Below, one piece after another: positions 1 to 353 of a stretch of DNA of 353 bases. How positions within the stretch are numbered: the stretch's first letter is position 1; every line of letters starts with the position of its first letter. The translations under genes were made by a program, and so were the position numbers. Location: NCBI RefSeq assembly GCF_003334815.1, contig NZ_QOWO01000134.1, one strand, 5' to 3'. This stretch comes from Escherichia coli (GTDB lineage Bacteria; Pseudomonadota; Gammaproteobacteria; Enterobacterales; Enterobacteriaceae). A model generated the notes under the pieces. The model was not told the DNA's origin and made no database searches. It saw only the letters and a list, made by a program, of their open reading frames with translations.

Positions 1-353
1 CCAGCCACAGAAATCACAGCCCTGTTCGGCATACCAGTGCTCCAGCGTGCAGCTGAAACGGCGGCTTAATTCTGCAATAACGTCGCTTTCCGGCTGACAC
101 CACGGCGTGTCGAAATCAACCTGAATGAAGTTGTCTCCCTGACTACTGATATTCAGGTCATACCCACAAGGCCACTTCACGCCATACCGTTCTGTATACC
201 AGTGATATGCAGAAGGAACACCGTTCAGAACACCGCCGTTAAAGCCATTCACTTCAATATCCAGGCGGGTCGGCAAAACCGTCAGCAGGTCAAACGGCAT
301 GGTTTTTTCCGGCAGTACGTTGTCACACAGACGGTTCCACCACACCGATACAT
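1..353 (-). CDS. Partial CDS for a hypothetical Trp/Cys-rich protein of unknown family; open across the whole window, truncated at the 3' end and probably at the 5' end
   Basis: Seen in sequence: the minus-strand frame with codons at 349-351, 346-348 ... 1-3 has 117 consecutive sense codons and no stop. Codon choice is typical of E. coli-like coding sequence (CTG Leu, CCG Pro, GGC Gly, GAA Glu, AAC Asn, GAC Asp dominate). The other two minus-strand frames are closed by stops (TGA at 282-284 and TGA at 323-325 on the minus strand). The in-register antisense frame on the plus strand is full of rare codons (ATA x4, CGG x5, AGG x2, AGA, CGA) and has no in-frame ATG. An in-frame ATG lies at 300-298; the 17 codons upstream of it (VSVWWNRLCDNVLPEKT) share the Trp/Cys-rich character and preferred-codon usage of the rest, so I favour a start beyond position 353, but a start at 300 cannot be excluded. 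Product family not recognised. Confidence 0.8.
298..310 (-). promoter_or_regulatory. Possible translation initiation site (alternative start): weak GGA Shine-Dalgarno-like element, A-rich spacer, then ATG at 300-298
   Basis: Seen in sequence: the minus strand reads CCGGAAAAAACC-ATG, with GGA seven nucleotides upstream of the ATG and an A6 spacer. The GGA is only a 3-nt match to the Shine-Dalgarno consensus, and the frame stays open and coding-like upstream, so this is more likely an internal Met codon than the true start. Confidence 0.25.

Follow-up and report, generated by a model that had tools for sequence, protein, structure and literature searches.

A DUF1281 gene of enterobacterial conjugative plasmids forms a separate leading-region unit preceded by a relative of validated single-strand promoters

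The 353-nucleotide stretch of Escherichia coli DNA analysed here (the window) lies within a plasmid gene for a DUF1281/Api92-like protein of 308 residues, of which it encodes codons 147–263 (window 1–353, minus strand). The gene is already known: it belongs to a catalogued DUF family with a solved structure, which the literature has flagged as an uncharacterised leading-region family. To this we add a corrected start codon, a map of the conserved tryptophans and cysteines, evidence that the gene is a transcription unit of its own, and the presence of a relative of validated single-stranded DNA (ssDNA) promoters ahead of that unit in all plasmid lineages examined. We propose, with confidence that falls a little short of even, that the gene is expressed early from the incoming strand and that its product helps the plasmid to establish itself by acting on a host factor, most plausibly a defence system, so as to neutralise or reprogram it.

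A single open reading frame fills the window, as the original prediction had stated: frame 3 of the minus strand is the only one of six that is fully open, and stops are present in the other five across the 353 nt. The chance of an open 117-codon frame is about 0.004 per frame, and coding is supported independently by homologues down to 24% identity and by dN/dS values of 0.13–0.38. The residue counts reported earlier are exact, the 117-residue translation containing 7 Trp (6.0%), 6 Cys (5.1%), 5 Tyr and 6 Phe, with WWNRLC, WPC, PWC and CGW starting at fragment residues 4, 60, 83 and 115, respectively. Relative to approximate E. coli background frequencies (our own figures), Trp and Cys are each about fourfold enriched (binomial P about 0.002 each), whereas Tyr and Phe occur at ordinary frequency (P 0.24 and 0.30); the composition is thus unusual in the first pair of residues and not in the second. 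The enrichment in Trp extends to the 300-residue annotated protein, which has 15 (5.0%, P about 8e-5). This form is predicted to be acidic, with a pI of 4.46 and 45 acidic versus 21 basic residues. An Rfam search with both strands of the window gave no match.

The fragment had been described as having no recognisable family, a view overturned by the HMMER search against Pfam that had been suggested as a check, in which both DUF1281 models matched the 117-residue translation significantly. Residues 3–60 of the fragment match PF06924 (DUF1281; hmmscan i-E 1.7e-13) and residues 63–116 match PF18406 (DUF1281_C; i-E 2.1e-12), a model described as a "ferredoxin-like domain in Api92-like protein"; for the full protein the corresponding values are 1.6e-46 and 2.9e-15. 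The full protein also matches the structural genomics crystal structure of Api92 from Yersinia pseudotuberculosis (2IJR) at E 9.4e-44, and is equivalent to this crystallised member in sequence and fold. PHROG 37043 is an unannotated full-length match to the family, and two further PHROGs (20518 and 12644) match the C-terminal part weakly; a search of NCBIfam with the protein gave no match. RefSeq names the product "DUF1281 domain-containing protein" on thousands of plasmids, and it also appears as YccB, YfdA, YfcB, YfaB, "YubB ferredoxin-like domain-containing protein" and, in the revised annotation of pESBL, "Hp8". All of the family motifs are present (MPNWCxN, DW, NGFNG, KWP, DFDTPW, FCG and GP..I..N..H.GG), with NGFNG, KWP, DFDTPW and FCG lying inside the window.

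The window is 100% identical to positions 9816–10168 of pM217_I1 (locus L001), inside a CDS annotated at 9404–10306 (WP_001739825.1). An in-frame ATG at L001 9380, 24 nt (8 codons) 5' of the annotated start, has GAGAGGAG before it, and translation from this codon begins MPNWCSNRMYFSG, which supplies the MPNWC start; MPNWCxNRL is the N-terminus of most relatives. The 300-residue RefSeq model cuts off the near-invariant C5 and N7. Judged from the sequence, the RefSeq start of WP_001739825.1 is therefore 8 codons short, and with the start moved to 9380 the protein has 308 residues, as the pESBL copy is annotated.

Conservation was counted in a 48-sequence alignment with identities down to 24%, using the numbering of the 308-residue protein. 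Trp is conserved at W4, W84, W116, W138, W151, W206 and W230 (36–45 of 48), and other aromatic residues substitute at W106, W252, W263, W281 and W298. Because Trp is kept at these seven positions in most of the sequences, the Trp richness is a real, conserved trait of the family. The conserved Trp residues fall in helices and strands of a confident AF2 model, a placement consistent with core packing. Among the Cys residues of the window, C261 alone is conserved family-wide (42/48); C247 (29/48) and C258 (24/48) are partially conserved, position 155 is Cys in 17, Asp in 12 and Glu in 4 of the 48 sequences, and neither C208 of WPC nor C231 of PWC is conserved, the latter being Ser in most relatives. 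The repeated adjacency of Trp and Cys pointed out in the original prediction is thus present in four motifs but is largely coincidental for the clade. The family-wide polar set comprises C5 (44/48), N7 (47/48), D137 (44/48), D227, T228, H251, E255 and C261. An exact C-terminal Gly-Gly follows a conserved GPxWIxxNxxH(Y/F) tail in 34 of the 48 members; the Gly-Gly codons of the 308-residue protein are at L001 10298–10303.

In the predicted structure, the N-terminal strand (MPNWCxN) and the C-terminal strands together form a ferredoxin-like "YubB" sheet domain, into which a Trp-rich helical domain of about 190 residues is inserted. The window, read on its minus strand throughout, covers the end of the helical insert (172–345; PF06924 model positions 123–177, coinciding with AF2 helices) and the first two thirds of the YubB domain (4–165; PF18406 model positions 1–54), in which the AF2 model places beta strands at residues 210–217, 221–229, 248–255 and 260–267. 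WWNRLC lies at 325–342 and contains the near-invariant W151 (44/48) and the clade-specific C155. NGFNG follows at 235–249 with the near-invariant G182, and KWP at 169–177 with W206 (36/48), next to the non-conserved C208. DFDTPW occupies 100–117 (D227 45/48, T228 44/48, W230 40/48). The segment EHWYAEQGCDFCGW at 1–42 holds H251 (43/48), E255 (41/48), C258, C261 and the near-invariant G262, and carries a CxxC in the IncI/IncF clade. Among alleles that are 91–98% identical overall, KWPCGYDLNISSQG alternates with KWPVGYEVNISRQG (P0002, P0010, P0015); the alternating segment comprises window 163–171 (residues 207–209, PCG) and adjoining codons, holds one of the non-conserved Cys residues of the window, and looks, from the alleles compared, like a small recombination patch.

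Many plasmids carry the window unchanged (100% identity). Of 5,426 complete E. coli genomes, 3,032, or more than half, gave a match to the window, in 3,855 records altogether, and 3,873 of the 3,921 matched places are on plasmids. In PLSDB, 4,787 plasmids from Escherichia, Salmonella, Shigella and Klebsiella match, of which 3,805 are predicted to be conjugative; the carriers are IncI1, IncF and related enterobacterial conjugative plasmids. The family is nevertheless small in sequence space, with 390 clusters (50% identity, E up to 1e-3), many of them fragments, among 1.84 billion representatives. No family in the PADLOC defence-system models was matched (0), and the best 50 AFDB50 matches listed are all DUF1281-type or unnamed proteins with no characterised function. 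A literature search under DUF1281, Api92, YccB, YfdA and YubB found no functional study; a 2026 preprint on F uses yfdA only as a locus marker. A high-identity relative of characterised function, which would have made this an ordinary annotated gene, was thus sought and not found.

The flanks are those of a plasmid leading region with anti-restriction and conjugation genes rather than of a core-genome operon, which bears out the suggestion of a poorly characterised accessory gene on a mobile element. In both pM217_I1 and pESBL, the gene diverges from impCAB and is co-directional with the leading array, pointing towards oriT-nikAB. It is the first, oriT-distal member of that array, which continues with the ssDNA methylase M.EcoGIX, YubE, DUF1380, KlcA/ArdB, SSB, a ParB-like protein, PsiB/PsiA and ArdA. 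In Salmonella, Klebsiella and Pantoea plasmids, whose DUF1281 proteins are 44–60% identical, the position in the array is unchanged (DUF1281, a small ORF or spacer, an N6_N4 methylase, YubE, DUF1380, Antirestrict), and the module on the opposite side varies: umuDC, dinI, parA, or parM/stbB (the latter on either side). The survey of Samuel et al. 2024 (PMC11541004) includes this family, as family 27, among the 100 largest leading-region families. It comprises 1,949 ORFs (FDR-corrected p-value 0), which lie at a median distance of 22 ORFs from oriT and on the strand of the leading genes; it is labelled "Uncharacterized; DUF1281", and Foldseek matched it to none of the anti-CRISPR or anti-restriction structures. 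In line with that description, the pM217 and pESBL genes lie on the leading side of oriT and are co-oriented with ssb, psiB and ardA.

More distant relatives occupy related surroundings. On an ICE-like contig (L002 1662–3700), an ArdC-type gene (ArdcN + MPTase-PolyVal) and an Api92-like DUF1281 gene run in the same direction, the former 114 nt upstream, and the same pairing of ArdC-type and DUF1281 genes occurs in the Pantoea pPATHpag ICE fragment (PMC10425158). One remote relative adjoins ParA and an orphan N6 methylase, and others lie in long one-directional arrays with SSB, RecT, YqaJ, Toprim or KfrA. In many database ORFs, the N-terminal half of DUF1281 is joined to PsiB, an N6/N4 methylase, TraV/TrbC, FinO or IS66 TnpB (for example P0017, P0029, P0007, P0101 and P0109); either, it seems, recombination or IS junctions often fall within the DUF1281 gene in IncF-type plasmids, or these fusion ORFs are assembly chimeras.

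Folding of the flanking spacers separates the gene from the methylase downstream. In pESBL, a strong stem-loop and T-run come just after the stop codon (−25.3 kcal/mol, z −3.9); an intrinsic-terminator consensus scan did not flag this stem-loop, and we call it terminator-like from reading the sequence and from the RNA fold. The 350 nt between it and M.EcoGIX form a template-strand hairpin of −97 kcal/mol (z −5.9). According to the available text of Wen et al. 2025, a "class 3" single-strand promoter was mapped 5' of M.EcoGIX, and the 350-nt hairpin is most likely that promoter. Since the terminator-like hairpin and then the 350-nt hairpin intervene before M.EcoGIX, the DUF1281 gene is a separate unit. 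We also considered whether DUF1281 is the first cistron of the M.EcoGIX operon, and rejected this because both hairpins lie between the two genes. The RefSeq "hypothetical protein" WP_001310011.1 (L011 4495–4806; pESBL 54394–54705) overlies both the terminator-like and the 350-nt hairpins; this ORF is probably spurious, given that the hairpin beneath it is most likely the class 3 promoter.

Upstream of the gene, a scan of the 390-nt spacer for a sigma-70-like site on the gene's strand found none. The spacer contains a long template-strand hairpin (−70 kcal/mol, z −4.8), and each of its arms has homology to the "class 2" hairpins that precede klcA and ardA. An element common to all three hairpins, TTGCAT-N15-TAACGT here, is TTGCAT-N15-TAAGAT in the two validated ones; TTGCAT and TAACGT may be the −35 and −10 boxes. 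The hairpin is therefore homologous to a validated ssDNA promoter and lies on the transferred (template) strand. A class-2-related element also precedes the gene in F, with 94–96% identity; a diverged Salmonella plasmid has it there with 83% identity, and a Pantoea plasmid in a more remote form. The lineages of this type are pESBL, F, pM217, L013 and the Pantoea plasmid. In three Salmonella/Klebsiella loci (L014, L015 and L017), the gene is instead preceded by a second class-3-type copy, 72–89% identical to that of pESBL, which ends about 48 nt before the DUF1281 ATG, while another copy remains 5' of the methylase. The upstream elements are located at L011 3300–3571, L014 5677–5952, L015 5735–5953, L017 5756–5952 and L016 5788–5960. 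RNAalifold applied to nine class-3-type copies gave 83 pairs, of which 16 are kept through changes on both sides. In total, 8 of the 8 plasmid loci examined have, ahead of the gene, a relative of one of the experimentally validated ssDNA-promoter classes.

The gene is under purifying selection. dN/dS is 0.13–0.38 across all allele pairs (0.25 for the closest pair), with dS saturated between lineages, and the unit made up of hairpin, gene and terminator is at least 80% retained in 4,466 of the 4,983 plasmids that match. The copy in the F reference NC_002483 is frameshifted near codon 162 (L012 12856–13778; record about 52855–53777) and is missing from the PLSDB gene table, and many DUF1281 ORFs in databases are truncated or chimeric. 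Such frameshifted and truncated copies probably account for the historical YccB/YfcB ORFs of about 168 residues and for the PF06924 model, which has 177 positions and covers residues 30–206. In the Tn-seq analysis of pESBL (PMC4288162), Hp8 was classed as "non-essential", with a score of 1.00, both for plasmid maintenance and for transfer into E. coli K-12, and M.EcoGIX and KlcA/ArdB scored identically. The phenotype of M.EcoGIX, of up to about 1000-fold, appears solely with restriction-bearing recipients; the neutrality of Hp8 was recorded with a K-12 recipient that has no relevant defence system.

In the reading that we favour, the incoming single strand would serve in the recipient, soon after transfer, as the template for transcription of the DUF1281 gene, and the resulting protein would then aid establishment: a host factor, most likely a defence system, would be neutralised or reprogrammed, whether by binding of the protein to that factor or via the conserved C5/N7/D137/D227/T228/E255/C261 cluster. 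The benefit would be conditional on the recipient, as with the neighbouring M.EcoGIX. That ICEs (beside ArdC) and a jumbo phage (described below) also carry members of the family argues for a function useful to invading DNA generally. A bolder version, which we regard as possible but doubtful, is that DUF1281/YfdA/Hp8 constitutes a seventh ssDNA-promoter unit and encodes a new anti-defence or host-takeover effector of otherwise unique fold, recruited by ICEs and a jumbo phage, which would act via the Cys/acid cluster and/or the terminal Gly-Gly, e.g., by inhibiting a host defence enzyme or serving as its decoy. The main caveat on early expression is that, in the available text of Wen et al., six operons are described as induced and hp8 is not mentioned, as might be expected if the gene were rather a factor of the established plasmid, accessory to stability or SOS-mutagenesis modules (impCAB/umuDC, parA, parM-stbB) and expressed from double-stranded DNA. 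Such a role would also suit the arrangement whereby the gene abuts and diverges from impCAB/umuDC or par modules in all plasmids examined, and the LexA-box-like palindrome CTGTATGCATATACAG, read by eye, in the shared spacer. We consider it rather improbable, however, because the imp, dinI, parA or parM-stbB partner varies whereas the linkage to and co-orientation with the methylase and KlcA are constant, the ICE and metagenomic relatives keep ArdC, methylase or SSB neighbours in the absence of imp and par, Tn-seq gave no role in maintenance, and the promoter scan found no sigma-70-like site on the gene's strand. The palindrome itself is at L001 9010–9025, in the divergent spacer near the start of impC (DinI-like), and by its sequence presumably marks the SOS operator of impCAB.

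Two further alternatives concern the mode of action and descend from the original prediction, which had suggested a small metal- or nucleic-acid-binding domain. That idea lost ground in the form in which it was put, given that the Cys residues of WPC and PWC are not conserved, that Api92 lacks the CxxC and that the pI is 4.46. A more concrete version, unlikely in our judgement yet compatible with an anti-defence role, is that the protein is an enzyme or metalloprotein in which the conserved Cys, acidic and His residues make up a catalytic or metal (Zn/Fe) centre, taking the form of a four-Cys site (C5/C155/C258/C261) in the IncI/IncF proteins. C5, N7, D137, D227, T228, H251, E255 and C261 are each present in 41–47 of the 48 sequences, a possible ligand (Cys, Asp or Glu) occupies position 155 in 33, and ferredoxin topology should place C5, the end of strand 248–255 and the turn at 256–259 with C258 and C261 at one edge of the sheet. 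All four Cys residues occur together in 14 of the 48 sequences, and Api92 has C-S-H-Q at these positions; a family-wide set of four Cys/His ligands was sought in the 48-sequence alignment and not found, just C5 and C261 being conserved. Binding to nucleic acid, e.g., to the incoming single strand or to the hairpins, would suit a setting of ssDNA biology with SSB, ArdC and an ssDNA methylase close by, and Trp and other aromatic residues can stack on bases. It is nonetheless very unlikely for a protein this acidic (45 acidic versus 21 basic residues in the 300-residue form), with no match to an OB, HTH, KH or zinc-finger domain and with conserved Trp positions that, in the confident model, are consistent with core packing. 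Least likely of all, though by a narrow margin, is a dispensable passenger that is decaying without current function: the frameshift in the F reference, the many truncated or chimeric copies and the neutrality in Tn-seq would fit, but the constraint on dN/dS with dS saturated between lineages, the motifs retained down to 24–26% identity, the phage homologue included, and the retention of the hairpin–gene–terminator unit by 4,466 of 4,983 plasmids speak against it.

Among the main carriers of ESBL and other resistance genes in Enterobacteriaceae are IncF and IncI plasmids. Should the protein prove to act in establishment or against defences, it would bring a new fold to the counter-defence repertoire of plasmids and might help to explain their host range.

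Among known proteins, the nearest comparison is Api92 itself, from the YAPI island of Y. pseudotuberculosis, which has the same two domains, DUF1281 and DUF1281_C. Api92-type proteins differ in lacking C155, the CxxC and the terminal Gly-Gly and in carrying a different C-terminal extension, and their genes lie in ICE-type elements beside ArdC, whereas the window's gene lies in IncI and IncF leading regions. More remote are the "YubB ferredoxin-like" proteins that BFVD matches in tailed phages and giant viruses (Foldseek E 1e-7 to 1e-3), which share the beta-sheet domain and are likewise uncharacterised and encoded by invading elements; they are mostly of 170–260 residues, appear to lack the long helical insert, and give low full-length TM-scores (0.24–0.34). 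The DUF1281 family proper is nearly absent from phage genomes, the exception being the Erwinia jumbo phage pEa_SNUABM_54, whose full-length homologue of 345 residues (L018 814–1851; 26% identity, pairwise E 5e-25) keeps PNWCSNRLYF, NGFNG, KWP, DFDTAW, FCG and the terminal YGG and is without H251 and C258.

With ArdA, KlcA/ArdB, M.EcoGIX, PsiB and ArdC, the comparison is one of setting. The DUF1281 protein is acidic and its gene shares their array and orientation, its upstream hairpin is homologous to those that drive klcA, ardA or M.EcoGIX, and it is dispensable in K-12 matings, as M.EcoGIX is. No similarity to these five in sequence or fold was found, nor was any found to characterised anti-restriction or anti-CRISPR proteins (ArdA, KlcA/ArdB, ArdC, Ocr, Acr). 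HerB (YfjB) of F, a ParB-like protein, offers a parallel of another kind. We considered whether YfjB/HerB is the DUF1281 gene under another name and rejected this, as it is a distinct ParB-like gene; it has a ParB/CTPase fold with an HTH and binds DNA, whereas the DUF1281 protein is acidic and has no DNA-binding motif. HerB is also a conserved leading-region protein, long uncharacterised, for which zygotic induction and reprogramming of the host were recently demonstrated, and it thus provides a precedent for an establishment function outside defence.
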